64,000 bases of DNA from Candidatus Babeliaceae bacterium (GTDB taxonomy: Bacteria; Babelota; Babeliae; Babelales; Babelaceae): positions 20,242-84,241 of the forward strand of contig JBAZVR010000003.1 in the NCBI GenBank assembly GCA_041660765.1. Reading direction: 5' to 3'. Positions 3,659-57,581 of this stretch are shown here, in pieces. Positions within the stretch are counted from its first letter, which is position 1. Every line of letters starts with the position of its first letter. The notes under the pieces are model-generated. The model was not told the origin of the DNA. It made no database searches and saw only the letters and a program-made list of their open reading frames with translations. The position numbers were made by a program, and so were the translations under genes.

Positions 3659-3678
3659 TTTTTTTTGCCTGTGATACT

Positions 3679-3710
3679 ATATAGCGGGCTTTCATGTCCG
3701 CTATAATTTT
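3679..3710 (+). terminator. terminator-like hairpin after rho
   Basis: TATAGCGGGC ... GTCCGCTATA imperfect inverted repeat followed by a T-rich run (ATTTTT). Confidence 0.45.
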
Positions 3711-3737
3711 TATGTTATATGAAAAAAAGGAATTCGT

Positions 3738-32400: not shown

Positions 32401-35400
32401 TTGTTGCGGTGTTTGCTACTTTGCCGCTTGCAGAAATGGTTGCCAATTTGGTATCTGCAATCGCAGCGGCAGGATCGACGTCGGCATTAACAATTAATGA
32501 ACTGGATAAATTACCCAATGCGTCATTATGTACAACGCCCGCGGTCGTAAATGCATCAATAGAAATTGTTCCGCCGGAGGATATTTTGAGACGTTCTACA
32601 GCAGACGTGCTCAATGATAAAGCCCCTGCGCTTGCAGAAAGACCTGTCGTTGTACTGCCGGTAAATACTAATGCGGGAGCTGCTGTTGATCCTGCAGGCA
32701 ACTGCAATGTGCCGGTCATGGTGTCGCCCGCTTTTGCAACTTTACTATTCAATTGCGTTTGTACAGATGATGTTGTTCCGGCTAAAAAATCTAATTCAGC
32801 CGCTGTCGTAGTGCTAGAAACAAGTTGACTGCTGCCGTCAGTCGCAACTGCTCTATTTGGTGTAAGCCCACCAACAATAAGATTGCCATCAGTTTTGAGT
32901 GTATTTGCAGCGCCGCGATATACATTGGTGTCTGCATCTAACACAATTTTGGTACTTGCATTGGGCAGCTGCACTTGATTATTTACGCCATCTAATTGCA
33001 TGATCGTATATTCTGGAATAACAATTTGCCCAAAGCTATCACTATTTTGATAATTAAAAGAAAGCTCTGCGCTTGTTGCATTTTTGTTGATATCCCATCC
33101 ACGCAAGGCGCCTGTAGTACCAACAGGCGATGCCGTGTCAGATACTAACCGCACACCAGCAGCTTGAGTTCTGTCAGTCGTAAGCGCTGTCACATGTGCA
33201 CCACTATTAGATTCAACAAAAAGTGTTGACGATGCCGGTTGCGGATTATAAAAACCGATTGATTCCGTAGAATATAGCGATGATCTATAATTAAGTTGAG
33301 GATCGTTTGCTGTACCAATAGCTGCATGTAACAGCGTTATATCCGCATTGGTCGCTGAGCCGATATTTAAAGCATTATTATCGCTTTGATCAAAATAAGC
33401 CAAACCAACATTGGTAGGATTATTAATAATAATTTTGTTACCCGAAGCAGAACCGGCAGTAAAATTTAACGTAGCCAATGCTTGTTGCGTAATATCAGTT
33501 GTACAGTTAGTTATATACAAACTTGATGCACTCAATTGAGTTGATGCTGTATCACCTAATGTTCCAATAATCAGTGCATTTGTATAATTGTTAATTTGAT
33601 CACCAGAAACAATAACATTTGCCTGGTTAGTAACTTGTATCGCGGTTGTAGGACCAATGTCGCCAGGTGCGCCGTTGAATATACAACCAGAGAGCTTGGA
33701 ATCCGTGCCTGCCCCAGATACTTGAATTTCAACAACCGGCATAAGAGAATTTGGTTCAAATGTGCATCCTTGCACTATTAATTGTGCACTAGTTGATTGA
33801 ATAATTGAATTGCTATTAAATCTAAATGTTATAGATTGAGTTGTTACATTCATGCCATTACTTATATCAAAACCTGTTGCACAAGCTATGCACAGCCCCC
33901 CGGTAAAAAATACAAATCCTGTCCCTGTAGCAGAGATCCCAACATTAGCTGGCGTTGTAAAGGTTGTTGAACCTTCTATAATACAGTTGCTACAAATAGC
34001 TGAAGCATTATTAATAGCAAGCCCTACGCCATTAGTTATAAAAAAACAGCTTTCAAATGTATATGTGGCACTGGTTCCGCCGCAGGATACTGCCGTACCA
34101 AAATTGGTAAAATCTATATTGTTAAAAAAGGTGTTATTTCCGCTACCAGAAAGAGACACTGCGCTTGCGGTCGATATGCCTGATGCTGAAAATGAAAGAT
34201 TGAGAAATTGCGCAGAAATCGTAGTAGAAATAAGATTATTCGATAATGTATTTGGTAAAATTATAACAGAACTTGTAGATTCGCCGATAACAGAAACGCC
34301 GCCCGCTGTAATAGCAAGTGGCCCGGCACTATTGTCTTCTGTATACACACCGGAACTGATAAGAATAGCAACTGGATTAACTGCAGTTGAAATAGTATTT
34401 GCAGTAGTAATAGCTTTACTCAGGCTTGCGTAGGGATTTGAAGAAGAGCCATCGCCGGTTATATCACTACCAAACGTTGTAACGTAAATGGTGCGGCTTG
34501 TGACAGGGTTAACGCTGCCGCCGGGTGTAAACCATTCTAGCTGTGTTGGCGTTATTGCATTTGCCTGCATTACTTGATGTGCAGCAGGAGTTGTTGAGGG
34601 CAATGACAGTGTATAACTTGAAGTTACCGATGCTGGGCCATTAAGTCCAACATAATTAACGCCGGCCAAATCTTGCAAACGCACGGCATTTGATGTAGCC
34701 ATGGTGAGATTGCCGGTCATAGTATCCCCGGCTTTGAGCACATTGAGTGATGCTGCACCAATAAGCGCTGCAGTAATAGTACCCGCAGAAAAATTACCAG
34801 CATTGTCGCGTGCAACTATAGTGCCCGTTGCATTAAGATTAGTTGCATCAGTTGCTAGCGTAACATCATCTGCATTATTGGTAACAACCATATGTGTGCC
34901 GGCAGCGAGTGTTTTGAAGTTAAGCGTGTTACCCGTTTTGTCCCTAAATATTTGACCAGCGCCGGTGCCAACGTTTGCGCCCGTGGTTTGGCTAGCAAGA
35001 GAAAATTGTGTAAATGCTATAGGGTCCGTGTCAATGACCGCCAGCGGCGTACTACACAACCAACTTGATCCGCCATTATTTGTTCCTGACAATATTAAGA
35101 CATATGCTCGACCAGCTAACGTACCTGTTGCAAAATCTGCAGGCCGTGTCCATGCGCCGGCTTGAGCAAGCCAGAGGCCGTTTTGTGTAGTAGTGCTTTG
35201 TCCGACAAGTAATACACGGTCATTAGCTGCTAATGGAACACTATCAATCGTATACAAGCCCGTTATAGGAGTGTCTGTGGTGCTGACAACAAGAGCCGGT
35301 GTTTTGACAACAAAACCCAACCCTGCCACCAAATCAACATATGCTTTTGTTGCAGCATCTGTCGGATTAGTTACTGTTCCATCAAGCGTGATCATGTTGG

Positions 35401-38400
35401 TAGCAAAATTACCCGTACCGTCACGTACAACAATATTACCTGCTGTGTCTGTGCTTGATATTGTCGCCAGACTTGCATTACTAATAGTTGCAGGAGTAAT
35501 GTCACTATTAATAATCAGCGAGCTGGTTAATACACCGAGTGCGCTATTATGTACTACGCCTGCCGTACCCGTAAAATTATTAACCGTTATATTCCCACTT
35601 GATGCAATATTAAGTGCTTCAGTGCCATTAACATCAAAAGAAAGTGCATCTACTGTTGGAGACGAAAGCCCTGTGTTGATGCTGCCAGAAAATTTTAATG
35701 CAGGCGATGCTGCAGTGCCTGCTGGCAGCGTCAAAGCACCCGTCATGGTGTCCCCAGATTTGAGCACATTAAGTGATGCTGCGCCGATAAGAGTTGCGGT
35801 GATAGTGCCTGCAGAAAAATTATTAGATCCATCACGTTCAACAATAGTATTTGCGCCAAGGCCACTCGTTGCGGTTGTTGCAGAATTTGCAACTTTTCCC
35901 GCTGTAGAAATTGTTGCAAGTTTTGTGTCCACTATCGCAGCTGCTGGATCAACATCAGCATTAACAATTAATGAGCTTGTTAAGTTACCTGATACATCAT
36001 TGTGCACAATTCCAGCAGGTGTTAAGTTATTAATAGAAACCGTACCACCAGACGATATTTTCATGCGTTCTAGTCCAGATGTGCTCAAAGACAAAGCGCC
36101 CGCGCTTGCAGATAATCCCGTCGTGGTACTACCGGTAAATACTAATGTCGGAGCTGCCGTTGATCCAGCTGGCAACTGCAATGTACCGGTCATGGTGTCA
36201 CCGGCTTTTGCAACTTTACTATTCAATTGTGTTTGTATATCAGATGTTGTTCCAACCAAAAATCCTAATTCTGCTGCTGTCGTAGCACTAGAAACTAATT
36301 GACTACTGCCGTCCGTTGCAACTGCTCTATTTGCAGTTAGGCCCCCAACAATAAGATTGCCATCGGTTTTCAATGTACCTGTGGCGCCTCTATAAAGATT
36401 GGTATCTGTATCTAACACAATTTTGGTACTTGCACTGGGCAGCTGCACTTGATTATTTACGCCATCTAATTGCATGATCGTATATTCTGGAATAACGGCT
36501 TGCCCAAAACTGTCACTATTTTGATAATTAAATACAAGTTCTGCGGCAGTACCAATTTTGTTAATATCCCAACCGCGTAATGCGCCTGTAGTACCAACGG
36601 GAGATGCAGTGTCAGAAACTAATCGCACGCCAGAAGGTTGAGTTCTATCAGTTGTTATTGCTGTGAGCATTGCACCACTATTAGATTCAACAAATAATGT
36701 TGTCGAAGCTGGTGGTGGATTATAAAAACCCATTCCTCGAGTTGAATATAGAGATGATCGATAATCAAGCTGAGGATCATTGGGAAGGCCGAGAGCGGCA
36801 TGTAATAACGTAAAATTATCATTTGTTAGATTGCCGATATTCAATGCATAATTATCTTCTACGTCAAAATAGGCGAGTGCAATATTTGTAGAATCATTAA
36901 CAACAATTTTACTGCCAGTAGCAGTACCAGAACTAAATACTAAAGTTGACGTACCACGTTGCACCATGTCATTGGTACAATTTGATATCGATACACCTGA
37001 TGCATTTAATTGAGTTGATGCGGTATCGGCGGGAACACCAACAACAAAAGCATTAACATAATTATTAATCGATCCACTATCTATAACGAGTTGAGCTTGA
37101 TCAGTAACTTGAATTGCTGTTGAGGTTGTTGGAGTGCCGGTATAGTCAAATATGCAACCAGCAATAGTTGCCATAGTTCCTGCCCCAGAACTTTGAATAC
37201 TGGTGAATGGTGATGCCGAACTTGTATGAACGAATGAACATGCTTCTAACGTTAATTGTGCGCCACTCGCCTGAAAAATATCACTATTATTTAATCTAAA
37301 GGTTATTGATTTGCCACCAAACAACGCATTGCCAGCAATATTAAATGCTGTATCACATAATAAGCATAAGCCACCAGAATACAAAATTTGTGCAGCAGCA
37401 CCAGTTGCAGCTATCCCTGTATTTGCGGGCGTTGAGGTTAATGAGCCACGAATGTTACATTCACTACATTGTACTTGTGCATTATTGACATTAAGTGCTG
37501 TCCCGTTATTAACAAAAAAACAAATATCAAATAAATAAACACCATTACTGCCACCGCAAGCAACGCCGGTATTAAAATTAAAAAATGATACGGCAATAAA
37601 ATTACTCGTATTGCCACTCCCAGCAAGCGTAACGGCACTGGCAGTAGAAACACCCGTTGCCCTGAACGTAATATTTGTAAATTGTACTGCAGTTGTTGCA
37701 GAAATAAGGTCATTGGATAATGTATTTGGTCGTATTACAACGCCTGTTGGTGCGTCTCCTATAATGGAAATACCACCGGCGGTAATTGCTATCGGGCCAG
37801 CGCTATTATTTTCTGTATACACACCGGGCATTATACTAATTGCAATCGGATTTGCTGTTGTTGAAAGAGTATTGGCAACGTTTACCGCTTTAGCGAGACT
37901 TGCATATGGGGTTGCAAATGAACCATCGCCTGTCGTATCATTGCCGTATTGTGCAACATAAATAATTCTACTTGCTGCTGGAATTACGGTTCCTCCTGAT
38001 GTCACCCATTCTAAATTAGTTGGCGTTGTTGCATTCGCCCACATAACTTGGTGCGCTGTTGGTATGGTTGACGGTAGTGATAATGTATAATTTGACGCTA
38101 CCAATGCCGGTGCATTAAGCCCAACATAATTTGCGCCAGCTCCATCTTGAAACCGAACGGCATTTGCTGTAGCCATCGTAAGATTACCGGTCATCGTGTC
38201 GCCAGTTTTAAGCACGTTAAGAGACGATGCGCCCGTAACATTACCAATTAATGAAGAAGTGATTGTACCTGCTGCAAAATCACCAGATCCATCTCGTGCT
38301 ACTATTGCATTTGGTGTATCAAGACTTGTTGCTGTTGTTGCCGAATTTGCCACTTTACCGGGCGTAGAAATGGTTGCCAGTTTTACATCAGTTATAGTAC

Positions 38401-41365
38401 CATTCGTAATATCATTATTAACAATTAACGATGTTGATAATGTGCCACTTGCATCAGTATGCACAACACCAACGCTATTAAGATCATCAATTTTTACATT
38501 ACCTGCAGCATTAATATTAATCGCTTCTACACCATTGACATCAAATGATAACGTATTTGCTACAGGTGCTGAAAACCCCGTATTAGTACTGCCAGAAAAT
38601 TGCAATGATGGAGATGCAATGCTGCCTGCTGGTAACGTTAAATTGCCCGTTACCGTTCCACCACTTGATGGCAGCTTGCTATTTAGTTGTGTTTGCACCG
38701 ACGATGTTGTGCCGGATAGAAAGCCTAATTCTGTTGCTGTTGTAACGCTAGAAGCAAGCTGACTACTGCCGTCTGTTACAACTGCTTTATTAGGCGTAAG
38801 CCCGCCAACAATAAGATTCCCATCAGTTTTGAGTATACCTGCAGCACTGCGATATATATTAGTGTCTGCGTCCAAAACAATTTTTGTACCGGCGTTTGGT
38901 AATTGCACTTGGTTATTAACGCCATCAAGTTGCATAACTATATATTTTGGAATAGTAGCTTGTCCGCCTGCGGGATCATTATTTTGGTAGTTAAATGCGA
39001 GCTCTGCTGTCGTTGCATTTTTGTTAATGTCCCATCCACGCAAGGCGCCGGTGGTACCAACAGGAGATGCGGTATCAGAGGCTAATCGTACACCAACAAC
39101 TTTTGTGTAATCAGTTGTTATTGCATCTACATGTGCATCATCATTAGAGATAACTGACAATGTTGACGGATTGGCTAAAGAATTTACATAGCTAATAGCT
39201 TCAGTTGAATATAATGATGGTATATAATCAAGTTGCGGTTTATTGCCAGCTCCAATAGCTACTTGCAGAAGTGTTGTACGGGTATTACTGAGTGAACCAA
39301 TATTTAATGCATTTGCATCATCTTGATCGAAAAAGGCCAAATCAACATTGGCAGAATTGGCGATACTTATTTTATCACTAGTGGCAGAGCCGGCATTAAA
39401 ATTTAATGTTGAACTGCCCTGCTGAACAATATCATTGGTACAATTAAGGATAAACGTTCCTGATAAACTCAGTTGCGTTGATGATGTATCTGCAGGCGTG
39501 CCCACTACACACGCTGTGGTATAGTTTTCTATTTGCCCGGCAGAAACAATTGCGCTACCAGAATTTTCAACTTGCAATGCTATTGCATGAGAACTACCAA
39601 CAGAGTTGATGCCATTAAAAACACCGCCAGAAATAGTAGCTAAGCTACCAGCATCATACACTTGAATATTAGTAACAGTTCCTGTTATAGCAACCGTTTG
39701 GAAAAAGCATGACTGTGCTATTAATTGCGCGCCGGTTGTTTGTATAATACCGTTGGTATTGTTCCTAAATAAGACCGATGTTGCGTCAAAAGTTATACCA
39801 TCGCTTATAGTAAAACCCGTTATACAATTTGTACAAAGGCCTCCAGAATACAGGATTGCCCCACTGGAGCCAGTCGCCATAATCCCAGTATTTGCCGGAG
39901 TGTTTGTTAAAGAACCTTGTATGGTACAATTATTACAAACAACAATTGGATTATTAATATTTAATCCTGTTGTATTAAGTATAAAATTACACAAATCGAA
40001 TACATAGGTACTGCCTGATCCAGCGCATGATACACCGGTATTAAAATTTAAAAATCTGACGGCACTTAAGTGCGAGACGTTATTGGCGCCAGAAAGAACA
40101 ACGCCTGTCGCTGTTGATACACCGCCAGCATTAAAAGATAGATTATCAATACGCGTAGTTACTATGCATGATACAAGATCATTGGATAGCGTATTGGGAA
40201 GAATAAATACAGAATTGGTTGCTTCGCCTACAATCGAAATGCCGCCAGCGGTAACTGCAATTGGCCCTGCGCTATTATTTTCTACATAAACACCTGAATA
40301 TATAAAAATAGTAAGAGGGTTTGATGGGCTTGCTATAGTGTTTGCCAAATTGATTGCTTGAGCAAGGCTTGCAAATGGTGACGTAAGAGAACCATCGCCT
40401 GTTATATCACTGCCGTATTTTGCAACATAAATAGTTCTACTTATAGTTGGTACAACGTTTGCACCAGAAGTAAACCATTCCAAATTTGTTGGAGTAAGTG
40501 CATTAGCTCGTAATGTTTGGTTTGCTAAAGGTATTGTTGATGGCAACGACAATGTATAACTGAGTGGGACGGTTGTTGGTGCATTAAGCCCGACAAAATT
40601 TGTTCCAGCGGCCTCTTGAAACTGAACACCATTTTGCGTAGCAAATGCCAAATTGCCCGTCATGGTATCTCCAGACTTGAGAACGTTGAGTGATGCCGCT
40701 CCAGCAACATTACCTGTTACATCGCCGACAATACTGGCATTGACGGTTGCTGCTGTTAATGTATTGACATTGTCAATATTGTTAAAAGCATCAAGCGTGA
40801 CAAACGTTGATTTTATATTTCTTGGGCCGTTTGCTGGATCTGTTGTCGTCAGAGCATTATCAACAAAAAATATTGCTTGCGAAGAAACATTACCGCCTCC
40901 TATTGGTGGGGCTGGTGGCGCCGTGTATATCAAGTTACCAAAACCATCACTGGCTAAAAACGTACCTGCTCCACCAGCAATGCTGGGCCAGCTTATGGTA
41001 ATTCCATTTTTAGTAATTCCGTCAATAGTAATGTTGCCAGCATCATCGACAAGAACTGATGAATCTTTAATAACCGTACCAGATGTATCTGCAAAACGTG
41101 GCACTGCATTGAGAGTAGATGATGCCGGCCCCTGAACATTACCGCTGCCACCGCCGCTGCTACCGCTAGCACTAATAATTGAATTGGCAATAATATGATT
41201 AACATACAGGGTATTGCCGATGGTGGCATTGCCAGGGATAAAAAGATCTTGCGCTCGCAATCCAGTAATTACATTAACGTGTTGAAATGTTTTATCTGTG
41301 GCTGTTCTACCAAATAAAGATAATGGTAAAAAAACAGCGAATGCTAATATTCTTATACGATACAT
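29450..41365 (-). CDS. giant (about 3971 aa) secreted mosaic protein with tail-fibre-like repeats and beta-helix-like modules, paralog of 21917..29446
   Basis: ORF 29450..41383. ATG 41365 is preceded by AAGGATGG and gives the signal peptide MYRIRILAFAVFLPLSLFG. Contains three beta-helix-like modules (starting at about 40440, 37975 and 34505), an internal knob (about 34990-35375), a long GDTMTG repeat array and a C-terminal domain ending WYRIGRG. Confidence 0.9.
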   Translation of the reverse strand: MYRIRILAFAVFLPLSLFGRTATDKTFQHVNVITGLRAQDLFIPGNATIGNTLYVNHIIANSIISASGSSGGGSGNVQGPASSTLNAVPRFADTSGTVIKDSSVLVDDAGNITIDGITKNGITISWPSIAGGAGTFLASDGFGNLIYTAPPAPPIGGGNVSSQAIFFVDNALTTTDPANGPRNIKSTFVTLDAFNNIDNVNTLTAATVNASIVGDVTGNVAGAASLNVLKSGDTMTGNLAFATQNGVQFQEAAGTNFVGLNAPTTVPLSYTLSLPSTIPLANQTLRANALTPTNLEWFTSGANVVPTISRTIYVAKYGSDITGDGSLTSPFASLAQAINLANTIASPSNPLTIFIYSGVYVENNSAGPIAVTAGGISIVGEATNSVFILPNTLSNDLVSCIVTTRIDNLSFNAGGVSTATGVVLSGANNVSHLSAVRFLNFNTGVSCAGSGSTYVFDLCNFILNTTGLNINNPIVVCNNCTIQGSLTNTPANTGIMATGSSGAILYSGGLCTNCITGFTISDGITFDATSVLFRNNTNGIIQTTGAQLIAQSCFFQTVAITGTVTNIQVYDAGSLATISGGVFNGINSVGSSHAIALQVENSGSAIVSAGQIENYTTACVVGTPADTSSTQLSLSGTFILNCTNDIVQQGSSTLNFNAGSATSDKISIANSANVDLAFFDQDDANALNIGSLSNTRTTLLQVAIGAGNKPQLDYIPSLYSTEAISYVNSLANPSTLSVISNDDAHVDAITTDYTKVVGVRLASDTASPVGTTGALRGWDINKNATTAELAFNYQNNDPAGGQATIPKYIVMQLDGVNNQVQLPNAGTKIVLDADTNIYRSAAGILKTDGNLIVGGLTPNKAVVTDGSSQLASSVTTATELGFLSGTTSSVQTQLNSKLPSSGGTVTGNLTLPAGSIASPSLQFSGSTNTGFSAPVANTLSFDVNGVEAININAAGNVKIDDLNSVGVVHTDASGTLSTSLIVNNDITNGTITDVKLATISTPGKVANSATTATSLDTPNAIVARDGSGDFAAGTITSSLIGNVTGASSLNVLKTGDTMTGNLTMATANAVRFQDGAGANYVGLNAPALVASNYTLSLPSTIPTAHQVMWANATTPTNLEWVTSGGTVIPAASRIIYVAQYGNDTTGDGSFATPYASLAKAVNVANTLSTTANPIAISIMPGVYTENNSAGPIAITAGGISIIGDAPTGVVIRPNTLSNDLISATTAVQFTNITFRATGVSTASAVTLAGSGNTSNFIAVSFFNFNTGVACGGSNGVYLFDICFFVNNGTALNVNNAQVQCSECNIRGSLTSTPANTGIAATGAAAQILYSGGLCLLCDTAFNIAGNALFGGKSITFRLNNSDIFQASGAQLTLEACSFVHTSSASPFTSIQSSGAGTMATIAGCIFDYTGTPTTSTAIQVTDQAQLVIDSGSINNYVNAFVVGVPADTASTQLNASGVSISNCTNDMVQRGTSTLVFSSGTATGSKIVVNDSTNIALAYFDVEDNYALNIGNLTNDNFTLLHAALGLPNDPQLDYRSSLYSTRGMGFYNPPPASTTLFVESNSGAMLTAITTDRTQPSGVRLVSDTASPVGTTGALRGWDINKIGTAAELVFNYQNSDSFGQAVIPEYTIMQLDGVNNQVQLPSASTKIVLDTDTNLYRGATGTLKTDGNLIVGGLTANRAVATDGSSQLVSSATTAAELGFLVGTTSDIQTQLNSKVAKAGDTMTGTLQLPAGSTAAPTLVFTGSTTTGLSASAGALSLSTSGLERMKISSGGTVSINNLTPAGIVHNDVSGNLTSSLIVNADVDPAAAIVDTKLATISTAGKVANSATTATSGLGANTIVERDGSNNFSAGTITATLIGAASLNVLKSGDTMTGALTLPAGTAASPALKFSGSINTGLSSPTVDALSFDVNGTEALNIASSGNITVNNFTGTAGVVHNSALGVLTSSLIINSDITPATISNASLATISSTDTAGNIVVRDGTGNFATNMITLDGTVTNPTDAATKAYVDLVAGLGFVVKTPALVVSTTDTPITGLYTIDSVPLAANDRVLLVGQSTTTQNGLWLAQAGAWTRPADFATGTLAGRAYVLILSGTNNGGSSWLCSTPLAVIDTDPIAFTQFSLASQTTGANVGTGAGQIFRDKTGNTLNFKTLAAGTHMVVTNNADDVTLATDATNLNATGTIVARDNAGNFSAGTITAALIGAASLNVLKAGDTMTGNLTMATSNAVRLQDLAGVNYVGLNGPASVTSSYTLSLPSTTPAAHQVMQANAITPTQLEWFTPGGSVNPVTSRTIYVTTFGSDITGDGSSSNPYASLSKAITTANTISTAVNPVAILISSGVYTEDNSAGPLAITAGGVSVIGESTSSVIILPNTLSNNLISTTISAQFLNLSFSASGISTASAVSLSGSGNNTFFNNIDFTNFGTAVSCGGTSATYTFESCFFITNGVGLAINNASAICSNCIIEGSTTFTTPANVGISATGTGFVFFTGGLCIACATGFDISNGMNVTTQSITFRFNSNSIIQSTSAQLIVQGCTFEPNSLMPVVEIQVSGAGTDSKLSGCIFNGAPGDIGPTTAIQVTNQANVIVSGDQINNYTNALIIGTLGDTASTQLSASSLYITNCTTDITQQALATLNFTAGSASGNKIIINNPTNVGLAYFDQSDNNALNIGSATNADITLLHAAIGTANDPQLNYRSSLYSTESIGFYNPQPASSTLFVESNSGAHVTALTTDRTQAAGVRLVSDTASPVGTTGALRGWDINKNATSAELSFNYQNSDSFGQIVIPEYTIMQLDGVNNQVQLPNASTKIVLDADTNVYRGAANTLKTDGNLIVGGLTPNRAVATDGSSQLVSSTTTAAELDFLAGTTSSVQTQLNSKVAKAGDTMTGTLQLPAGSTAAPALVFTGSTTTGLSASAGALSLSTSAVERLKISSGGTISIDAFTTAGVVHNDALGNLSSSLIVNADVDPAAAIADTKLATISASGKVANTATTATNTNTPNTIVLRDGSGNFSAGTITANLIGNVIGNISPTGTFTVQAGTRAVPSIQFTGSTNTGFSAPEPNTLSFDINGIEAINISSSRGVLIDNFTGTAGIVHNDALGNLSSSLIVDADVSPSAAITDNKLATISTPGKVANSATTATSANLPNTIVLRDASGNFSAGTITAGLIGNVLGNVTGSASLNVLKSGDTMTGNLTLPAGTRAVPSLQFSGGTNTGLSSPSANTLSFDINGVEAINISSSRGVLIDNFTGTAGIVHNDALGNLSSSLIVNADVSPSAAITDDKLATISTSGKVANSATTATSVNLPNTIVLRDASGNFSAGTITAAFSGTVTGNVIGSASLNVLKAGDTMTGTLQLPAGSTAAPALVFTGSTTTGLSASTGNLSLSTSAVERLKISSSGTVTITGLTPAGVVHNDVSGNLSSSLIINADVDPAAAIIDTKLATISTAGKVANTATTATALDTAGAIVARDASGNFAAGTITAGLIGNVTGSASLNVLKSGDTMTGNLTLPAGTNISPSLKFSGSTNTGLSSPVANTLSLSINGTEAINIASSGNILIDNFTGTAGIVHNSALGLLTSSLIVDADVSPSAGIVDTKLATILTPGKVGNSATTATGANSSNTIVARDNLGNFAASTITANLLGNVTGSASLNVLKAGDTMTGTLTHPAGTRAAPSIQFTGSTNTGFSSPSANTLSFDVNGTEAINISSSGGILIDNFTGTAGVVHNSALGLLTSSLIVNSDITPGTISNASLASISSANTPNTIVLRDASGDFSAGTITAALIGNVTGAASLNVLKAGDTMTGSLVLPAGTAAVPALQFTGSTNTGFSAPTANTLSFDTNGAERMSVSSGSILMPTPLVTTNVRRDQAIQSATPTVGGSVTTLSTTSILILKNVVNVGGAGFTVRFPPSPIDGQFFTIVQGSTNSTTLVNTGGTGGAAIVNPVNSLAPGSNFTSSTNGAAVTYYYNATANTWYRIGRG
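29830..32860 (-). repeat. tandem coding repeat array, unit about 477 nt (159 aa), about 6-7 units
   Basis: Unit: SLNVLK.GDTMTG.L.LPAG....P.L.F.GS.NTG.S.P..NTLSF..NG.EAINI.SSG...ID.FTGTAG.VHN.ALG.L.SSLIV.ADV.P.A.I.D.KLATIS..GKVAN.ATTAT......IV.RDASGNF.AGTITA. Copies at about 31540-31725 and 32017-32202 are nearly identical. Confidence 0.85.
34955..35895 (-). repeat. near-identical block shared with 25560-26500 (inter-paralog)
   Basis: See the partner entry. Encodes the tail-fibre-tip-like knob and the adjacent GDTMTG repeat. Confidence 0.85.
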
Positions 41366-41419
41366 AGGCAAACCATCCTTCAATCTTGTACTACTTAATA
41401 TCTTCTTAAGGTTATTTAG

Positions 41420-43259: not shown

Positions 43260-45116
43260 CTATAGTTTTCTCTTGAATGTTTTTTCAATATCATGCACCG
43301 AAATAAGCCACGTTGTGGGCCTTCCGTGAGGGCATGTCATACGATTATGTGCGGTAGAAAGCTGATCGATAATCTGCTGCATTTCTTGTTCAGAAAGAAT
43401 ATCGCCCGCTTTAACAGCCGCCTTGCATGCCATTTGCGCATGTAGCTTTTCATGCAGTTGTTTAATAATTTCTTTTTTTTCTAATCCTGCATATTCAGTA
43501 ACCCAAACAATTGATTTGCGAATTAAATCATCGATAGATTGATGTTGCGCATGTATGGGTGTTGTCTTTACTAGTATTTTAATATAATTATTTTTTTGAT
43601 CTTGCTGTACTTCTAATGCTATGCCCCGCTCTTTAAAATAATCACCATAGGGTGCAATCACAGCATATTCTTCTTCCGTGAGCATAATAGTTTCTGGGAA
43701 TAATACTGCGACCGCAGGTACTTCTTCAAATGATGTTGCGTATTTTTCATACAAGATACGCTCATGCGCTGCATGCTGGTCAATCAGCACCAGCCCATCT
43801 GCATGCTCCGCTAGAATATATGTTTTTTTATACTGGTCTATCAAAAAATAATCTTGATGTTTAAGCGTGCGCATCTGGTTCGATACACCGCTTTCAGCGG
43901 CACTCACCATGAGCGCACCGGACTTTTTGCCTTCCCCTCGCTCATCCTGCTTGCTTACCTCTCGCTCATCCCGAGTAGACTGAAAGGCATATCGAGGGAC
44001 AGACATCATGGGCGCACTGGACATTTCGCCTACCCCCCGCTCATCCCGAGTGAATTTCGAAGAAATTAGTATCGAGGGATCGTAGTGAGAAACACCAGCA
44101 GACTTAGTAATATAACGGGACATATTACTTTCAAGCCGTTCTTTAACCATCTTTTCAATACCCAGCTCAATAATACGTGGATGCAAAAAACACACTTCTT
44201 CTTTGCGTGGGTGAATATTAATATCGACATGCTCTGTGTCGCATTCTATAAAAATGACGCCGGCAGGATATCGGCCATGAGGTAGAATAGAACTATATTG
44301 TTTGGTAATTGCCTGAATAAGTTTATAATTTTTGACCCAGCGTTTATTAACAAAAATAAAAAGTGAGTTGCGATCATAACGAGAAAAATAATTGTGTGAT
44401 ACTGCGCCAGTAAGTTTAATATTTTTAGCAGTATCTACGTGAGAACAGGTCAGCATTGCTTCTGCAAAAGTTCGATCAAATAATTGTGCAAGTCTATCGG
44501 GAAGTGTTGTAACTGCAGGGGCTTGAATGGCACAGGTGTCATCGTGCATTAGTGTAAAAGAACAGGTGTAATGCGCTAGGCTCAAAGCTTGCACAAGCTG
44601 AACAATTGCTCGCCATTCTGTTTCACGAGATTTTAAAAATTTTTGACGAGCAGGAACAGAATAAAATAAATTTTCTATGCGTATATCGGTGCCGGTATTA
44701 CATGCGCTTTGGGTAGTATTAACAACCGACTTATCCATAACAATGACGCGTGTACCTTCTTGATTAGATGCTTCTTTGGTAACGAGCGTAAAAAGAGAAA
44801 CTGACGATATGCTCGACAGTGCCTCACCTCTAAACCCAAACGATCGCACGTTTTTTAAATCATCGACTGTTTTTATTTTACTCGTTGCATGCGGCAATAC
44901 GCACATGAGGGCATCTTGTGGCGACATGCCACAACCATTATCAATGACGCGAATTAATTTTTTACCACCATCTTCTATATAAATAGTTATTTCGGTCGCA
45001 CCTGCATCAAGAGAGTTTTCTATCAGCTCTTTGACAATATTGGCAGGGCGCTCTACAACCTCGCCGGCAGCAATTTTTTGCGCCTCTAAAAGTGGTAACT
45101 GATAAATTTTTCCCAT
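43260..45116 (-). CDS. mutL: DNA mismatch repair protein MutL (endonuclease-type C-terminus)
   Basis: GHKL ATPase N-terminus (AAGEVVERPANIVKELIENSLDAGA, DNGCGM) and C-terminal DQHAAHERILYE motif (DQHAx2Ex4E). Confidence 0.95.
   Translation of the reverse strand: MGKIYQLPLLEAQKIAAGEVVERPANIVKELIENSLDAGATEITIYIEDGGKKLIRVIDNGCGMSPQDALMCVLPHATSKIKTVDDLKNVRSFGFRGEALSSISSVSLFTLVTKEASNQEGTRVIVMDKSVVNTTQSACNTGTDIRIENLFYSVPARQKFLKSRETEWRAIVQLVQALSLAHYTCSFTLMHDDTCAIQAPAVTTLPDRLAQLFDRTFAEAMLTCSHVDTAKNIKLTGAVSHNYFSRYDRNSLFIFVNKRWVKNYKLIQAITKQYSSILPHGRYPAGVIFIECDTEHVDINIHPRKEEVCFLHPRIIELGIEKMVKERLESNMSRYITKSAGVSHYDPSILISSKFTRDERGVGEMSSAPMMSVPRYAFQSTRDEREVSKQDERGEGKKSGALMVSAAESGVSNQMRTLKHQDYFLIDQYKKTYILAEHADGLVLIDQHAAHERILYEKYATSFEEVPAVAVLFPETIMLTEEEYAVIAPYGDYFKERGIALEVQQDQKNNYIKILVKTTPIHAQHQSIDDLIRKSIVWVTEYAGLEKKEIIKQLHEKLHAQMACKAAVKAGDILSEQEMQQIIDQLSTAHNRMTCPHGRPTTWLISVHDIEKTFKRKL
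43879..44080. repeat. dispersed repeat element lying in frame within the mutL linker
   Basis: Shares exact 14-mer TTCGATACACCGCT and 11-mer AGCGGCACTCA with 50235-50264, and exact 16-mer AAGAAATTAGTATCGA with 56821-56836. Also contains internal direct repeats (CGCTCATCCyG three times, CATGrGCGCACyGGAC twice, TATCGAGGGA twice). Confidence 0.7.
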
Positions 45117-48208: not shown

Positions 48209-50155
48209 CTACATTAATATTTGCGCAAGTATGATTAAGTCATTGTTAAGCTCTGATAATAACGCTGATTCAAAAGGAGCCGTCGGTGGTGTTGTGAATG
48301 GCGGGTATATCTTTGGAAAAGCTAGTTTAACCTCTGTTATAAGTTGATCAGAATTAGTGCCATACTCACCCATCTTGGTTTTGATATCATTAATTAATGA
48401 TTCAACCGCGCTCTTTATATCTTGCGAAGCACTTTTTTCTTGCAAATCTTGGATCTCAAGACTAACGTGAATTTTCAATATTTTAATCATTTTTGTTAAA
48501 AGTTTCTTCTTAAGCTCCGTTATTATTTGTATATATGGTTTTTTTGTTGTTTCATCCATATTTGGAAAGTCATAAATTTTGTCATATAATTTTTGATAAG
48601 ATTCATTAAATATTTTATAGTCGGTGTGTTTTTTAACAGCAGCAAGTTTTTTAAGCGTTTCGATGTCATTAACTATCTCAACATTAAAAAATTTAAGAGC
48701 TTGTTGTCTAGGATTCAGAGGCAAAGGTTTTGCAGGGCTATCGTCTTTTTTTTCAGGTTCTTTAGGCGTCGGCGCAGGCGTTCCTGCAATATGGCTTTTT
48801 ATCTCTGTCATTAGCTTACTCTCGTCAAATACGCTTTGAAGATAGCGATCCTTTGTTTTGTTGCTGAGATACTTTATTGTATCAAGTTTGGCGTATTCTT
48901 CTTTTTTATTGTTTTTACTATAAAAATATGGTGATTTAATCATCAAATAAACCGCAAGGTGCTTAAAATAATCATTAACCATAATGCCAAAATCATTCAT
49001 TGGTAAGGGCCTCATAATCTTTTGGCTTCCTGTTGATGGAAAATTGGCTGAGTTTAAATAATCTGGGATACTTCCTATCATTTTATGAATTTCTTCCATA
49101 AAATCTTTTGCAGATTCTTCGCCAAGCATTTTTTTACCGCTGACTATGCTGAATGTTAGCGGTCTTGCATCAAATGTATACGGGCTATTATACGAGTTAT
49201 TATCATTGTAAGCTTTAAAATCTGCTTGAAGCGCATCGAGTATATACGCTTTGCACAATAGCTGCTTGTACATTGCCTGATATTCAGGACTTTGCCCTAG
49301 TTTGGCAATCGCTTCTGCATCAGCAAAAAGCTTGTTCTTAAGATTAGATAAATCTGGAGAAGTAAAATCCGGTATGTTGTATGGATCTAATTCTTTTTTT
49401 ATTTGCTCGATAATTATTGTAGGCGCCGGCGCAGGTTCTTGTGTTAATTCTTTTGCCTTTTCAGATTCTTTTATTAACTTGCTCTCTTTAAATATATCTT
49501 TAAACGTGTCTTGTGTTCTTGGAGCGCTTGCAAGTTTCATCTTTTCAAGCTGCGCATAGCCCTCTTTTTTTGTAGCAGCATCATAAAAATATGGTGATTG
49601 AATTGTTAAAAAAGCCGCAAGATAATTAAAATAATCGTTAATAAGATCATTTACCGTAAAGCCGATAATATTTTTTTGACCCAATTCTCCAAACTTGGCC
49701 GATGTTAAATACTCTGCAATGCTCGTTATCGTTGTATTAATTTCTTTGATTAACGTATCAGCTGCCTTGTCGCCGAGAACTTTTTTGTCGTCTTCAGTAA
49801 CAGTAACTACTACTGGTTTTTGGTCGAATGTATAATTTTTGGTCCAGTTAGCTGTATTATTGTCAAAATATGTTTTGAGGGCATTGAGCATCGCAGATTT
49901 AAATCGTGCTTGTTGGTATATACGAAGAATTTCAGGTGTAGTTTGTAATGTGCCGGCAGTGATTCTTTCGGCAATCTGCTTGGGAAACTTAGAAATATTA
50001 AATACTTTGTTTACTAACTTTTTATCATTAAACATTATCATCTTATCTGCGGCAAGCGCGGCTCGCATGCCTGTTAAAGAGCCGCCCGTTTCTTCAGATC
50101 CGGCATGGGCAATGGTATGTAAAAAAAGAGGTAATAATAAGAATAGTTTTTTCAT
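48209..50155 (-). CDS. secreted paralog family A member, double-domain (648 aa)
   Basis: AAGGAG lies upstream of the ATG and a signal peptide is present. Two SPYFY blocks (LTIQSPYFYDAATKKEGYAQL, LMIKSPYFYSKNNKKEEYAKL). C-terminal LNNDLIILAQILM. Confidence 0.75.
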   Translation of the reverse strand: MKKLFLLLPLFLHTIAHAGSEETGGSLTGMRAALAADKMIMFNDKKLVNKVFNISKFPKQIAERITAGTLQTTPEILRIYQQARFKSAMLNALKTYFDNNTANWTKNYTFDQKPVVVTVTEDDKKVLGDKAADTLIKEINTTITSIAEYLTSAKFGELGQKNIIGFTVNDLINDYFNYLAAFLTIQSPYFYDAATKKEGYAQLEKMKLASAPRTQDTFKDIFKESKLIKESEKAKELTQEPAPAPTIIIEQIKKELDPYNIPDFTSPDLSNLKNKLFADAEAIAKLGQSPEYQAMYKQLLCKAYILDALQADFKAYNDNNSYNSPYTFDARPLTFSIVSGKKMLGEESAKDFMEEIHKMIGSIPDYLNSANFPSTGSQKIMRPLPMNDFGIMVNDYFKHLAVYLMIKSPYFYSKNNKKEEYAKLDTIKYLSNKTKDRYLQSVFDESKLMTEIKSHIAGTPAPTPKEPEKKDDSPAKPLPLNPRQQALKFFNVEIVNDIETLKKLAAVKKHTDYKIFNESYQKLYDKIYDFPNMDETTKKPYIQIITELKKKLLTKMIKILKIHVSLEIQDLQEKSASQDIKSAVESLINDIKTKMGEYGTNSDQLITEVKLAFPKIYPPFTTPPTAPFESALLSELNNDLIILAQILM

Positions 50156-50217: not shown

Positions 50218-50233
50218 GATATATAGCAAAGCC

Positions 50234-50275
50234 CTTCGATACACCGCTCTGCGAGCGGCACTCAGGGTGAGCGGG
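50234..50275. repeat. intergenic copy (5' part) of the dispersed repeat element
   Basis: CTTCGATACACCGCTCTGCGAGCGGCACTCAGGGTGAGCGGG contains the hairpin CCGCTC-TGC-GAGCGG and matches mutL-internal 43878-43918. Confidence 0.65.
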
Positions 50276-50294: not shown

Positions 50295-51197
50295 CTATAT
50301 TATTTGGCCAAGAATTATTAAGTCATCATTCAGTTGAGATAAGGCCATAACGGTGTGCAATTTGGTGTTAATAAGTTTTATAAATAAACTTGGATCGGCA
50401 TTGTATTCTATGGCCTTTTTTTTAATCTCATCCAATAATTGTGTCTTTTCAGCTACAGTTGTTATCTTCTCAACATTTTTAATAATGTCATTTTTGAATA
50501 TCCCAAAAAGCTTTAATTGCGTATCTTTTTTGATTTCGTCGAGCTTATCAGAGCCGGCATCATTATATAGTGTGTTATATAACTCTTTAAAAATAGAGTA
50601 ATAACTGTGATCTACATGCTGAGCGAATTCTGTGAATGCCTGTATTTTTTTATCTATTTTTTCATCGTTATTATAAAAATAGCGTGATTCTATTAATAAG
50701 AGCGCCTGAATATAATTAAAATAATGATTAAGTGTTTGCAGATTTTGCGGGTCTATATCGTGCACAGCGAGCGGCTTTATATACTCTGGGATGCTTTTTA
50801 TAATGCCATTAATTTCTGAGATCAAAGCTTCTGCGCCTTGTTCGCCAAGTACTTTTGTATCGTCTTCAGTCACGGCAAGATCCGGAAGCGGTGTCACAAG
50901 TGTATACTTTTTTGTAGACACGAATTCATCAAAATATACTTTGAGTGCGTTTATGACGGCAATTGTACACCGCAATTGTTTATAAGTAAGTTTATATGTC
51001 GCTTGTTTAAATACGTTTTCTTTTGCCAGATGTAGGGTAGTAATAGTGCGTGCGGCAGCAGATAGTTCTTGCACCGCAGCAGCAAGACTATCTTTGTCGG
51101 TAAATATTAGTACTTTATGTTTTTGTAAGAGCGCTTCAGATCCGGAGTAATTTGTTATATGTAATAATACCGGTAGTAGTAAAAAAGTTTTTTTCAT
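50295..51197 (-). CDS. secreted paralog family A member
   Basis: ORF 50295..51215, start moved to ATG 51197 (AAGGGG upstream; MKKTFLLLPVLLH parallels MKKLFLLLPLFLH of the neighbour). Has LLIESRYFYNND and C-terminal LNDDLIILGQII. Confidence 0.7.
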   Translation of the reverse strand: MKKTFLLLPVLLHITNYSGSEALLQKHKVLIFTDKDSLAAAVQELSAAARTITTLHLAKENVFKQATYKLTYKQLRCTIAVINALKVYFDEFVSTKKYTLVTPLPDLAVTEDDTKVLGEQGAEALISEINGIIKSIPEYIKPLAVHDIDPQNLQTLNHYFNYIQALLLIESRYFYNNDEKIDKKIQAFTEFAQHVDHSYYSIFKELYNTLYNDAGSDKLDEIKKDTQLKLFGIFKNDIIKNVEKITTVAEKTQLLDEIKKKAIEYNADPSLFIKLINTKLHTVMALSQLNDDLIILGQII

Positions 51198-51228
51198 ATG
51201 GCCCCTTATGTACAAAGAATATGTTGTC

Positions 51229-55158: not shown

Positions 55159-56751
55159 GTGTTTAACGTGTTATGTATAATTGTGTTATTGTTTTCATAT
55201 CCGGTGTATGGTTATCGCTGTAATGGTTTTTCGGAGCTATGTAATAAAAAGTTTAATGAAGTAGCCTTTATTCAAACGCATAATAGTTCTTCGAATAAAA
55301 CATCTTTGGTGCAAAATCAGGACAGGTCCATCACGCAACAGTTGGTAGATGGTGTGCGGGCAATGAAAGTGCCTGTGCATAATAATTATGGCAACTTGTT
55401 GGGGTATTACTATCAGTCGTTATTACGGTACAAAAATATTTTAGAGAAAGCACTCGATATAATGCGGCAAGAAGCTCGGTCAGCGACGCGCGCATTAGAA
55501 AAAGAGGCGCAAGTAACATCATTAGATTTAGCAGCTCAAGAACTGGTAATTGATAAGAGTATCGAACAGGAAAAAAAAGACTATTATAACCTCCCTTCTT
55601 TTAGTTTAACTGAAAAGTCACAGTTTTCTGAATCAGGGCCATTTGCATATGAACTTGCAAAATTGCAGGCGGAGAAAGCTGCTCTTGTGCTCAAGGCTGG
55701 CGGATCAGAGGTGAGTAAAGATATAGCAACAACGTTTGTTGTCCCTGTTGAGGCAGTGAGCAAGCATCCAGAGAGTATTTTGCTCACTGCAGAATTAGAA
55801 CTTGTTAATGCGGCATTGTGGTTTATAGAAAAAACTGCGCATGATCAGCAAGATTTGATAGTGCAGCCTTATGCTTGTCATGGAGTTGCAAAAACAGAAT
55901 TTTATCAAAATTATGTTTCTAAAATGATTGATAATGCGCCGAGTCAGCTCAAGCCTATTTTGCAGCGCATGCAAAATCCTCTTTCAAATTTAGAAGATAG
56001 TTTGAAGCAACAATTATTTGGTGAAAAAAACGAATTTGGTGAAAGCGGGATTTTCCCATATCCAACATGTTTGTTAGATGCGGGAAGGAAATCGCTTGTT
56101 GATGTCTTAACAGAAGTTCGTGATTTTTTAGATAAAAACCCATATGAAGTATTGATGATTATGTTGGAAGATCATGATGTTGATAGTGCTCAGATAGCAC
56201 AGGCGGTAGAAAAGAGTGGCATAAAAAAATATGCGCATGTGCAAGATAGTCGCAAGCCGTGGCCGGCATTAGGGACTATGATTAAAACAAATAAGCGCAT
56301 GGTCATTTTTACGGGAACTGACATGCATGCCCGTTATCCATGGCTTAATTTTTATGATGCTTTTAGTGGATGGAATACGCATTGGGGGATGTCAAAAGTC
56401 GAAGATTTTGCGGTACCTTTTGATGCTGCGCTAGAAATAAAAAATTACGGCTTTTATGATGACAAGCCTCCATATAATAAATTTTTGCAATATGGTAATA
56501 GTATTACTCCCGTACTTGCTGGAGATATTGATAGCGCGCGTCAGGTTAATGCGCGTAGTATCGCGCGTCAACGTGCACTGGATCATGCGCAAGCAACCCA
56601 TCATATTCCCAATTTTATCAGCGTTGATTTTTATGAATATCCTACTCACGATGGGGTATCAGATATTTTTGATGTCCGCGATGAAATTAATGGCGTAGGT
56701 AAGTACGCCGGAAAACCCCTGTGGCGCCCACAAAAAACTCAGAAAAAATAA
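55159..56751 (+). CDS. secreted PLC-like phosphodiesterase (PI-PLC X-domain-like) with large insertions
   Basis: GTG start preceded by AGGAGG, and a signal peptide. Conserved blocks FNEVAFIQTHNS, NQDRSITQQLVDGVRAMKVPVH, YACHG, TCLLDAGRKSL..VL.EVRDFLDKNPYEVLMIMLEDH, NFISVDFYE. Confidence 0.65.
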   Translation: MFNVLCIIVLLFSYPVYGYRCNGFSELCNKKFNEVAFIQTHNSSSNKTSLVQNQDRSITQQLVDGVRAMKVPVHNNYGNLLGYYYQSLLRYKNILEKALDIMRQEARSATRALEKEAQVTSLDLAAQELVIDKSIEQEKKDYYNLPSFSLTEKSQFSESGPFAYELAKLQAEKAALVLKAGGSEVSKDIATTFVVPVEAVSKHPESILLTAELELVNAALWFIEKTAHDQQDLIVQPYACHGVAKTEFYQNYVSKMIDNAPSQLKPILQRMQNPLSNLEDSLKQQLFGEKNEFGESGIFPYPTCLLDAGRKSLVDVLTEVRDFLDKNPYEVLMIMLEDHDVDSAQIAQAVEKSGIKKYAHVQDSRKPWPALGTMIKTNKRMVIFTGTDMHARYPWLNFYDAFSGWNTHWGMSKVEDFAVPFDAALEIKNYGFYDDKPPYNKFLQYGNSITPVLAGDIDSARQVNARSIARQRALDHAQATHHIPNFISVDFYEYPTHDGVSDIFDVRDEINGVGKYAGKPLWRPQKTQKK

Positions 56752-56796: not shown

Positions 56797-56837
56797 GAGT
56801 AGTCGGTGAAAGCCGAGAGTAAGAAATTAGTATCGAA
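56797..56837. repeat. intergenic copy (3' part) of the dispersed repeat element
   Basis: GAGTAGTCGGTGAAAGCCGAGAGTAAGAAATTAGTATCGAA resembles mutL-internal GAGTAGACTGAAAGGC... and ...CGAGTGAATTTCGAAGAAATTAGTATCGA, including a 16-nt exact match. Confidence 0.6.
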
Positions 56838-56842
56838 TTATC

Positions 56843-56912: not shown

Positions 56913-57581
56913 GTGAAAAAGTATCTATTGCTCATTATGACAATATCGACCATCGCGATGCATTTCGCGCATCAGGTGGTTGCTCAGGATTATCAAAAAG
57001 TAGATTATGCGCGATTGGGGCAAGTGTATGCACCGAGTTATGAAGTTCTGCAGCGATGGCGTAAGGCGCCGGTGCAAGACATGCAAGGGCAAAAAGGGCA
57101 AAAAGGCTTGTCTGGTCAGGGTATTCGTCAGGCATTTTTTCCTGATTATGTAAAAAAAACTTTTGCTTATCCAGTTGTTGCTCGGGGTCTCATGACAGTC
57201 AAAAAGCCTTCCCCCGCAGCGTTGCTGAATGATGCTGTAAGGCGTGGCGACATGCAAGCGGTCAAAGATATGGTAGCGGCCGGCATGGTTAGTGGTAAAG
57301 ATATTAAAGATAGTGAGCTTTTAGCAGATGTGAAACACACGTTATTGCTTAAAAAATTAATTAAAAAAGTAACGGAACGCGAAGTTCTTTCTTATGCAGA
57401 TAAGTCTAAAGAAGATACTCGACAAGAACATAGACGATTTGACAAAGAAATAAAACAAATAGAAAGTGAACGTCTAAAAGCCGTATATATGCGGGATGAG
57501 CTTGGTAAGCAGTTACGCCATGTGATTGAGAGTGACCGCAAGGCAAGAAAGAATTTTGAACCATTAACCTGTCCCAACTAG
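56913..57581 (+). CDS. secreted paralog family B member
   Basis: GTG start. Leader MKKYLLLIMTISTIAMHFAHQVVAQ. One ANK-like unit (LNDAVRRGDMQAVKDMVAAG). Confidence 0.6.
   Translation: MKKYLLLIMTISTIAMHFAHQVVAQDYQKVDYARLGQVYAPSYEVLQRWRKAPVQDMQGQKGQKGLSGQGIRQAFFPDYVKKTFAYPVVARGLMTVKKPSPAALLNDAVRRGDMQAVKDMVAAGMVSGKDIKDSELLADVKHTLLLKKLIKKVTEREVLSYADKSKEDTRQEHRRFDKEIKQIESERLKAVYMRDELGKQLRHVIESDRKARKNFEPLTCPN

Follow-up and report, generated by a model that had tools for sequence, protein, structure and literature searches.

The 64-kb stretch of DNA studied here (the window, from contig JBAZVR010000003.1 of a Candidatus Babeliaceae bacterium) carries, at 43260-45116 on the minus strand, a mutL gene in which copies of a dispersed hairpin repeat, translated in frame, make up most of the interdomain linker. 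The gene is an intact open reading frame (ORF) of 618 residues, as judged by the ORF list and Pfam, and its ATPase and endonuclease motifs are preserved (GFRGEAL at residue 94, DQHAAHER at 446, ACKAAVK at 563 and CPHGRP at 595). Pfam assigns residues 22-328 to HATPase_c_3 and DNA_mis_repair, the N-terminal ATPase/transducer part, and residues 427-573 to MutL_C; the repeat-derived DNA (43874-44081, residues 346-415) falls entirely within the linker between them. Across this segment the mutL frame is the only one of the six that is free of stop codons, and the G+C content is 54%, compared with 39% both in the rest of mutL and in the window. A first-pass annotation of the window had described a dispersed element of about 200 nt, translated inside the MutL linker and also present between genes. 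The in-frame repeat and its presence between genes are borne out, but not its size: what repeats is a unit of about 45 nt, and the insert consists of three full units, in both orientations, together with two fragments.

The unit has the form P1(4 nt)-TCGATAC-[P2 hairpin]-(C)ACTC-P1'(4 nt)-TGAGCG(G). When a covariance model (R1) built from unit copies in other genomes was run over the window with cmsearch, four sites scored (67, 61, 58 and 43 bits) and the remainder of the 64 kb stayed at noise level. Three of these sites are in mutL, where the order along the sense strand is U1, a fragment of an antisense unit tail, U2, a truncated sense tail and the antisense U4; two units are therefore sense and one is antisense, in a tail-to-tail arrangement. 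U1 (44037-44081, minus strand, mutL sense; 61.4 bits, E 1.3e-12) has the sequence TCCC-TCGATAC-[AATTTC ttc GAAATT]-CACTC-GGGA-TGAGCGG and encodes DPSILISSKFTRDER (residues 346-360). The antisense tail fragment CATGGGCGCACTGGAC (44007-44022, plus strand), recognised as a blastn self-match, encodes MSSAPM. U2 (43962-44001, minus strand, mutL sense; 43.3 bits, E 2.7e-8) reads TCCC-TCGATAT-GCCTTTCAGTC-TACTC-GGGA-TGAGCGA and encodes SVPRYAFQSTRDER (residues 372-385); its P2 hairpin has decayed, and no stable fold is predicted for it. The truncated unit 3' end AGCAGGATGAGCG (43939-43951, minus strand), found by a motif scan, encodes KQDER (residues 389-393). U4 (43874-43916, plus strand, antisense to mutL; 58.1 bits, E 8e-12) has the sequence TGGT-TCGATAC-[CCGCT ttc AGCGG]-CACTC-ACCA-TGAGCG, which is read in the gene as ALMVSAAESGVSNQM (residues 401-415); its P1 is the covarying variant TGGT/ACCA, a type also seen at loci L003-5 and L010. 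The hairpins of U1 and U4 are perfect.

The element had also been described as internally duplicated in mutL, and this is confirmed by local blastn, which aligns 43908-43947 with 44007-44046 (85% over 40 nt) and finds CGCTCATCCCGAGT twice within the repeat segment. The antisense fragment at 44007-44022 falls within this duplication. Tandem Repeats Finder called no repeat in 43800-44150, the duplication being too diverged and imperfect.

Outside mutL, the window holds one intact copy and one remnant. U3 (50230-50274, plus strand; 67 bits, E 6e-14) has the 45-nt sequence CCCTTCGATACACCGCTCTGCGAGCGGCACTCAGGGTGAGCGG and is located between the minus-strand genes 48209-50155 and 50295-51215; over the full unit it shows no mismatch to the copy in L009. 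The exact matches from which the repeat had been proposed are reproduced. The 14-mer TTCGATACACCGCT is present exactly twice, at 43879 and 50235 (expected 0.02; none of 100 shuffles gave two or more), followed at both sites by AGCGGCACTCA (43896 and 50254, local blastn), and the 16-mer AAGAAATTAGTATCGA begins at 44060 and again at 56821 (0.09 expected, even if two mismatches are allowed). The last of these positions belongs to U5 (56797-56840, minus strand), between 55159-56751 and 56913-57581, with the sequence TTCGATAC-TAATTTCTT...TCGG ctttca CCGA-CTACTC. U5 retains TCGATAC and half of a U1-type hairpin, while P1 and the tail are gone. This second intergenic match thus does share the 16-mer with U1, but it is a decayed remnant, to which the covariance model gives no score in the search of the 64-kb window.

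The anatomy of the unit is supported by covariation in both helices. In 17 units from seven sources, P1 is 98.5% paired and P2 81% paired; the P1 combinations among them are CCCT/AGGG, TCCT/AGGA, TCCC/GGGA, TTCC/GGAA and TGGT/ACCA, so that both sides vary at all four pairs. Such pairing was reached by none of 500 shuffles, and slid controls fall to 28-51%. In a further 150 model-aligned units, an alignment fitted to the model and hence biased toward the structure, 95.8% of the cells pair, nearly all in Watson-Crick fashion, with both-side changes at 10 of 10 pairs, 459 compensatory cells and G-U in just 2 of 1390 cells.

Two asymmetries indicate which strand is folded. At the outermost P1 pair, which the search pattern left unconstrained, the units listed have C-G 66 times, T-A 62 times, C.A nine times and T.G not once, so that a mismatch is tolerated only where the complementary strand can form a wobble. 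Similarly, 43 of the 64 P2 triloops among these units have the form C-TNC-G in the unit strand and hence C-GNA-G in its complement, and essentially none have the opposite orientation; d(C-GNA-G) hairpins are a class of unusually stable DNA minihairpins. The near-exclusive Watson-Crick pairing, the asymmetric loops and mismatches, the mixed orientation to transcription and the lack of any Rfam match lead us to infer that the molecule which folds is single-stranded DNA, namely the complement of the written strand, rather than RNA. Rfam gave no match at the units of the window (43-58 kb, E up to 10) or at those in L022, L028 and L029 (E up to 1). The conserved blocks were also compared with a hammerhead and with a tRNA T-arm, and both readings were rejected, since the core motifs misfit and Rfam is silent. 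In L028, positions 5935-6023 show a weak two-strand Rfam match to Aggregatibacter sRNA 41 (31 bits, against a gathering score of 97); the site holds a spurious ORF reading VRPEPVEG...PSTGSGRTE and looks like a hairpin-less unit doublet.

The first-pass annotation had made its reading depend on further copies elsewhere, and these turned out to be plentiful. In a scan of species-representative genomes, the hairpin type of U3 and U4 gave nine exact matches in six Dependentiae-type assemblies, five of them labelled Dependentiae/Babeliales (one just "uncultured bacterium") and one a short contig binned as Myxococcales. The flanks of the copies are unrelated and the unit edges sharp, and a looser motif scan of the same loci found more units with entirely different hairpin sequences. 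A metagenome scan added at least 120 loci with at least 142 units and at least 122 distinct hairpin inserts, on contigs whose G+C ranges from 0.29 to 0.72 among the matches listed, and the covariance model has more than 160 matches in unrelated contigs. A viral-contig scan gave 15 loci, every one with 66-73% G+C; the "viral" contigs L014-L024 and L028 (e.g. L028 6626-10619) are in fact gene transfer agent (GTA)-like head-gene clusters of GC-rich bacteria, with portal, protease, capsid and adaptor genes. Where checked, units or doublets occupy the capsid-adaptor gap of these clusters (L014, L016, L018 and L028); L024 has no unit in this gap, its unit being between protease and capsid. A plasmid blastn search with one doublet returned Sphingomonadaceae matches only, in intergenic DNA. 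Since copies are found in Dependentiae genomes as well as in Sphingomonadaceae plasmids, the family evidently covers at least two phyla with its core almost unchanged.

Several variant forms of the unit were observed. A hairpin-less form, P1-TCGACAAGCTC-P1'-CGAACGG, is present in L001, L011, L137, L151 and L157, and in GC-rich copies the P2 loop is itself a hairpin-less core. In L019, one full unit is nested in another. Inverted doublets are common, and their short head-to-head type is seen everywhere. A 333-nt cluster of three units in L058 is lacking at the orthologous site of L031 (about 88% identical), which is direct evidence for the gain or loss of units. In OY969699.1, an element of about 200 nt whose ends are perfect 14-nt inverted repeats (ACCTTATGCGTAAT / ATTACGCATAAGGT) occurs in three copies (L003 3300-3500, L004 1790-1990 and L005 5020-5220), each enclosing two head-to-head units, so that units can hitch-hike in a miniature inverted-repeat transposable element (MITE). 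Insertion boundaries were also sought in the Sphingomonad GTA-like clusters, where the intergenic DNA is too diverged for them to be defined. Two of these clusters, L014 and L018, are 99.7% identical, and a segment of about 1.07 kb adjoining the capsid gene is present only in L018 (about 5077-6144).

To find proteins associated with the units, the ORFs of all loci (about 1950) were clustered, part of them being also covered by a Pfam scan. The sole small family that recurs beside units in AT-rich contigs is a protein of about 95 residues with a GIY-YIG domain (PF01541, E 6e-19), the only domain that Pfam gives. A profile search located its gene in seven loci (L034, L036, L049, L053, L057, L131 and L137), in all of which it is placed between a minus-strand and a plus-strand unit with their heads inward; the inverted symmetry can continue for 40 nt past the units. 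Proteins from Babeliales, candidate division TM6 and Gallionella are among the homologues that are 60-70% identical, and in L157 (Babeliales, sharing its assembly with L008 and L010) and L158 (TM6) the gene is likewise bracketed. Bracketing by inverted units is thus seen in nine loci, and in all nine the enclosed gene is GIY-YIG. A Sphingomonas plasmid homologue (54% identical) is flanked by hairpin-less units with the P1 pair GGCT/AGCC, and a Methylobacterium plasmid homologue (51% identical) by a variant motif; distant plasmid GIY-YIG genes (Sphingomonas paeninsulae, Acidiphilium, Xanthomonas and Cupriavidus) have no units, nor a match to the SRM pattern discussed below, within 1.5 kb. Bacillus subtilis YazA is 44% identical to the protein. 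This recurrent arrangement suggests that the small GIY-YIG nuclease is a candidate partner enzyme of the units, and the short head-to-head doublets look like gene-less derivatives of it.

As to the host, the nearest relatives of the MutL protein are Dependentiae/Babeliales (TM6) proteins, of which the best is only 52% identical, and the contig that encodes it (L001) is syntenic with the window; these comparisons place the host of the window in the Dependentiae. A peptide screen found unit-like peptides in about 5 of 102 MutL homologues, and linker units were confirmed at the DNA level in the MutL of L001, L011, L012 and L013 (at residues 347, 355, 393 and 367). At least five Dependentiae MutL linkers accordingly hold units, always in the order sense then antisense. 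The first-pass annotation had raised the possibility that relatives share the same linker sequence, but the units of these other lineages differ in hairpin, reading frame and position, and the linkers of the window and L001 can be aligned in the unit core only. With one unit per few kilobases, random landing would leave about 2-5% of 250-nt linkers occupied; the frequency in MutL is close to this, so tolerance is enough to explain it and no special affinity is needed. In L001 (9867-9946) and L011 (9931-9995), a head-to-head pair of hairpin-less units is found in the short gap immediately upstream of mutL; the corresponding gap in the window is just 46 nt and has no unit in it.

MutL is not the only protein to have been entered. 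Whether other copies preserve a frame had been named as a point to check, and among the units listed in AT-rich loci 12 of 135 (about 9%) are in long ORFs. Other host proteins identified by Pfam are FtsK, NurA, MurB, a class I tRNA synthetase and a flavoprotein. In FtsK the unit sits in the variable loop before Walker B, and in MurB and the tRNA synthetase the units form a tail-to-tail pair. Another such pair (L158 2824-2922, from the TM6 assembly) is within a called UDP-glucose/GDP-mannose dehydrogenase gene (2450-3841), a placement that follows the gene call and not the frame. The tRNA synthetase of L137 (212-3307) has an insert of about 200 residues with a sense and an antisense unit at its ends. 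Tandem 13-residue repeats (NPNSIHSIQCAAQ...) fill this insert, a structure suggesting that units promote local expansion.

The closest known counterpart in architecture is the Ssn system (Chenal et al. 2025, PMC11893778). Ssn proteins are single-domain GIY-YIG nucleases of about 94 residues that bind and cut only single-stranded DNA, on one strand, beside hairpin repeats; these repeats (NTS/SRM) flank the ssn gene and are dispersed by the hundreds in Neisseria, Wolbachia, Rickettsia, Sphingomonas and others, with about 2% of NTS copies being intragenic (PMC11893778). The units share with this system a single-domain GIY-YIG gene of about 95 residues that is enclosed by two inverted hairpin repeats, directional and 20-50 nt long (here in nine loci and one Sphingomonas plasmid), a dispersed and mostly intergenic distribution of many copies over several phyla, including Sphingomonas and intracellular bacteria, and a strand asymmetry that fits the recognition of one DNA strand. 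They differ in possessing a conserved 3' tail, a further 4-bp helix that covaries outside the hairpin, and forms that are nested or lack the hairpin, in being intragenic in about 9% of cases rather than the 2% reported for NTS, and in that the nearest solved relatives of the bracketed protein are UPF0213. The published SRM pattern was applied as a regular expression (HGTCWYN(0-2)YYVSBRHN(0-5)WNVSBRGN(0-2)RNCYNB), which recovers the canonical NTS but has no match in the 64-kb window. The architecture is the same as that of Ssn; the units are at most putative members of the Ssn system. NTS-like SRMs (e.g. CGTCATTCCCGCGCAGGCGGGAATCCAG) coexist with the units, as a separate family, in the GC-rich or mid-GC loci L009, L017, L023, L024, L046, L072, L116 and L141, and none was found in the window or in clearly Dependentiae-like loci.

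From the observed anatomy, covariation and distribution of the units, their in-frame occurrence in many proteins and their association with one gene, we consider it likely that the MutL linker insert represents tolerated in-frame copies of a nuclease-associated single-stranded DNA hairpin repeat, the peptide being a passenger. The unit is a member of a non-autonomous hairpin-repeat family, in which the conserved single-stranded blocks TCGATAC, CACTC and TGAGCGG are positioned by two helices of freely varying sequence. Its folded single-stranded form, on the complementary strand, would be recognised by an enzyme, probably the small single-domain GIY-YIG nuclease that related genomes encode between two inverted units, and this nuclease, or host processes acting on hairpins, may spread or maintain the copies. 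These would usually land between genes. Genic copies would survive only where the added residues are harmless and the frame is open, as in the disordered linker of MutL, and the two fragments in mutL may have been left by partial internal duplication. If copies survive only at such tolerant sites, the DER-rich peptide they encode would be a passenger and not an adaptation, and the units in MutL are probably neutral.

A number of observations weigh against this explanation. The GIY-YIG gene was not found in the 64-kb window by the profile search, and the closest solved relatives of its product are the UPF0213 proteins BH0048 and EF2693 (PDB). In addition, the Sphingomonas GIY-YIG gene (L151 1495-2543) overlaps an RNA methyltransferase gene by 4 nt, and B. 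subtilis yazA abuts rsmI. Given these UPF0213 relatives and the methyltransferase adjacency, the protein could be a housekeeping enzyme instead of a repeat partner. The SRM pattern matches none of four representative units (three from the window and one from a GC-rich viral contig) on either strand, and neither a target-site duplication nor an exact insertion boundary was seen at the unit edges that were checked. Fold prediction, which had been suggested for the repeat, recovers the P2 hairpin but not P1, with weak z-scores (-0.4 to -1.9); since P1 is absent from the minimum-energy fold, it is covariation that supports the outer helix. Finally, the window and its nearest relative both have units at MutL residue ~346, and some selective value of the units in MutL is possible.

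Selection of this kind could have kept the mutL units as a DER-rich functional linker, or as a recombination- or nuclease-sensitive switch of a mutL mutator. Besides the shared residue, it would explain the constant sense-then-antisense order in the five or more Dependentiae linkers and the still perfect hairpins of U1 and U4. We nevertheless regard it as unlikely, since the share of MutL homologues with units is close to random landing in a tolerant segment of about 250 nt, hairpins, frames and positions vary between lineages, the linkers of the window and L001 are alike in the unit core alone, U2 has decayed, and units are also present in loops of unrelated proteins. A further explanation takes the units for structured RNA that acts in transcripts, in a regulatory, stabilising or terminator-like role, and those in mutL for a feature of its mRNA. 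It would fit the strong covariation of both helices and the start of the intergenic copy about 20 nt past a stop codon; yet G-U is nearly absent from the paired cells, unlike in RNA helices, the units face both ways relative to transcription even within one gene, there is no U-tract and no Rfam match at E up to 10, the asymmetry of the loops speaks for GNA triloops in the complement, and the folding energies are unexceptional. We hold this explanation to be very unlikely. That the intergenic matches are chance or mutL-derived fragments, with no repeat family behind them, can practically be dismissed: within the window only two short exact matches lie outside mutL, but the model matches in unrelated contigs, the identical units with unrelated flanks elsewhere and the shuffle expectations of 0.02-0.09 are all at odds with it.

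The units may alternatively be repeats of the repetitive extragenic palindromic (REP)/REPIN type, moved by a Y1 (HUH) transposase (RAYT or IS200/IS605), with P1 as the guide/cleavage-site pair. Like the repeats of the REP/REPIN-RAYT and IS200/IS605 systems, the unit seems to combine a hairpin with a conserved 5' tetranucleotide-like block, occurs in inverted doublets, brackets a partner gene and is probably recognised as single-stranded DNA. The complement of the unit reads GAGTAG followed by the hairpin in GC-rich copies, U2 and U5, and GAGTG in most Dependentiae copies, which is reminiscent of the GTAG plus palindrome of REPs. In IS608, guide and cleavage-site tetranucleotides stand on either side of a hairpin, and the covarying 4-nt pair that flanks the unit hairpin recalls these ends. 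However, the gene bracketed by units is in every case a GIY-YIG nuclease and not a Y1 transposase, and the unit keeps its sequence from one phylum to another, unlike REPs, which are for the most part specific to a species. No Y1 family emerged beside units from the ORF clustering of all loci, in which GIY-YIG alone recurs in AT-rich contigs (whole genomes were not exhaustively searched); as the ORFs were clustered and not all scanned with Pfam, a rare RAYT elsewhere in these genomes is possible. We consider a Y1-driven origin improbable, and retain the nuclease-associated repeat as the preferred reading.

In behaviour, the closest analogue of the units is provided by the Rickettsia palindromic elements (RPEs), reportedly described by Ogata and co-workers in 2000 and 2002. 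RPEs are short palindromic repeats found in non-coding DNA and also in frame in conserved proteins, many of them essential, where surface or linker sites tolerate the insertion. The units, too, are in a host-dependent bacterium and in frame at tolerant sites (the MutL linker, the FtsK loop, MurB, NurA and a tRNA synthetase), but the phylum is another one and the unit has about 45 nt, compared with roughly 100-150 nt for RPEs. The resemblance to RPEs put forward in the first-pass annotation is a fair analogy of behaviour, namely in-frame colonisation of protein regions that tolerate it. MITEs such as the Coxiella QMITEs and the Neisseria Correia elements also enter genes; the units are likewise small, non-autonomous and now and then lengthen or disrupt an ORF, although the unit itself has no visible terminal inverted repeat and target-site duplication. 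Rickettsia is among the SRM-rich genera, with no stated link to RPEs (PMC11893778).

Ssn/SRM, RPE and REP already exemplify this kind of system, but the unit itself appears to be new: the literature searched describes neither the unit nor its covarying outer helix, nesting, conservation between phyla, probable UPF0213-like partner and frequent in-frame occurrence in Dependentiae. We would tentatively suggest, as a possibility that we rate below even chances, that the units form a second, undescribed class of nuclease-partnered single-stranded DNA hairpin repeats, conserved nearly base for base from Dependentiae to Alphaproteobacteria. Such a class would be distinguished by a partner from the UPF0213/YazA/YhbQ-like branch of GIY-YIG proteins, which would give an uncharacterised family a substrate. 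It would also have a recursive grammar, in which units nest in the hairpin loops of others and a long palindrome has the nuclease gene at its tip, and would provide a steady supply of new linker and loop sequence in essential Dependentiae proteins.

Essential proteins that include translated palindromic repeats, for which Rickettsia is the best-known case, thus occur in the unrelated intracellular phylum Dependentiae as well, and the repeat concerned now has a concrete candidate enzyme. Conversely, the unit offers a testable substrate for a widespread and uncharacterised GIY-YIG protein of about 95 residues. Since the published Ssn search pattern misses this repeat, present counts of repeats and of nuclease-repeat pairs are probably underestimates. 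Translated units (PFDT...LRASG, ...TQDER, PLILS...VEG) also account for odd low-complexity inserts and for many spurious ORFs.

Elsewhere in the window, two adjacent giant ORFs of 2509 and 3977 residues (21917-29446 and 29450-41383, minus strand) are built of diverged repeats with a 3474-nt super-period and sub-repeats of 420-480 nt, and are homologous to the giant ORF of L001 that runs from 18288 onwards. The PI-PLC-X-like gene is single in the window (55159-56751) and represented by two tandem paralogues in the syntenic L001 (13926-16806).

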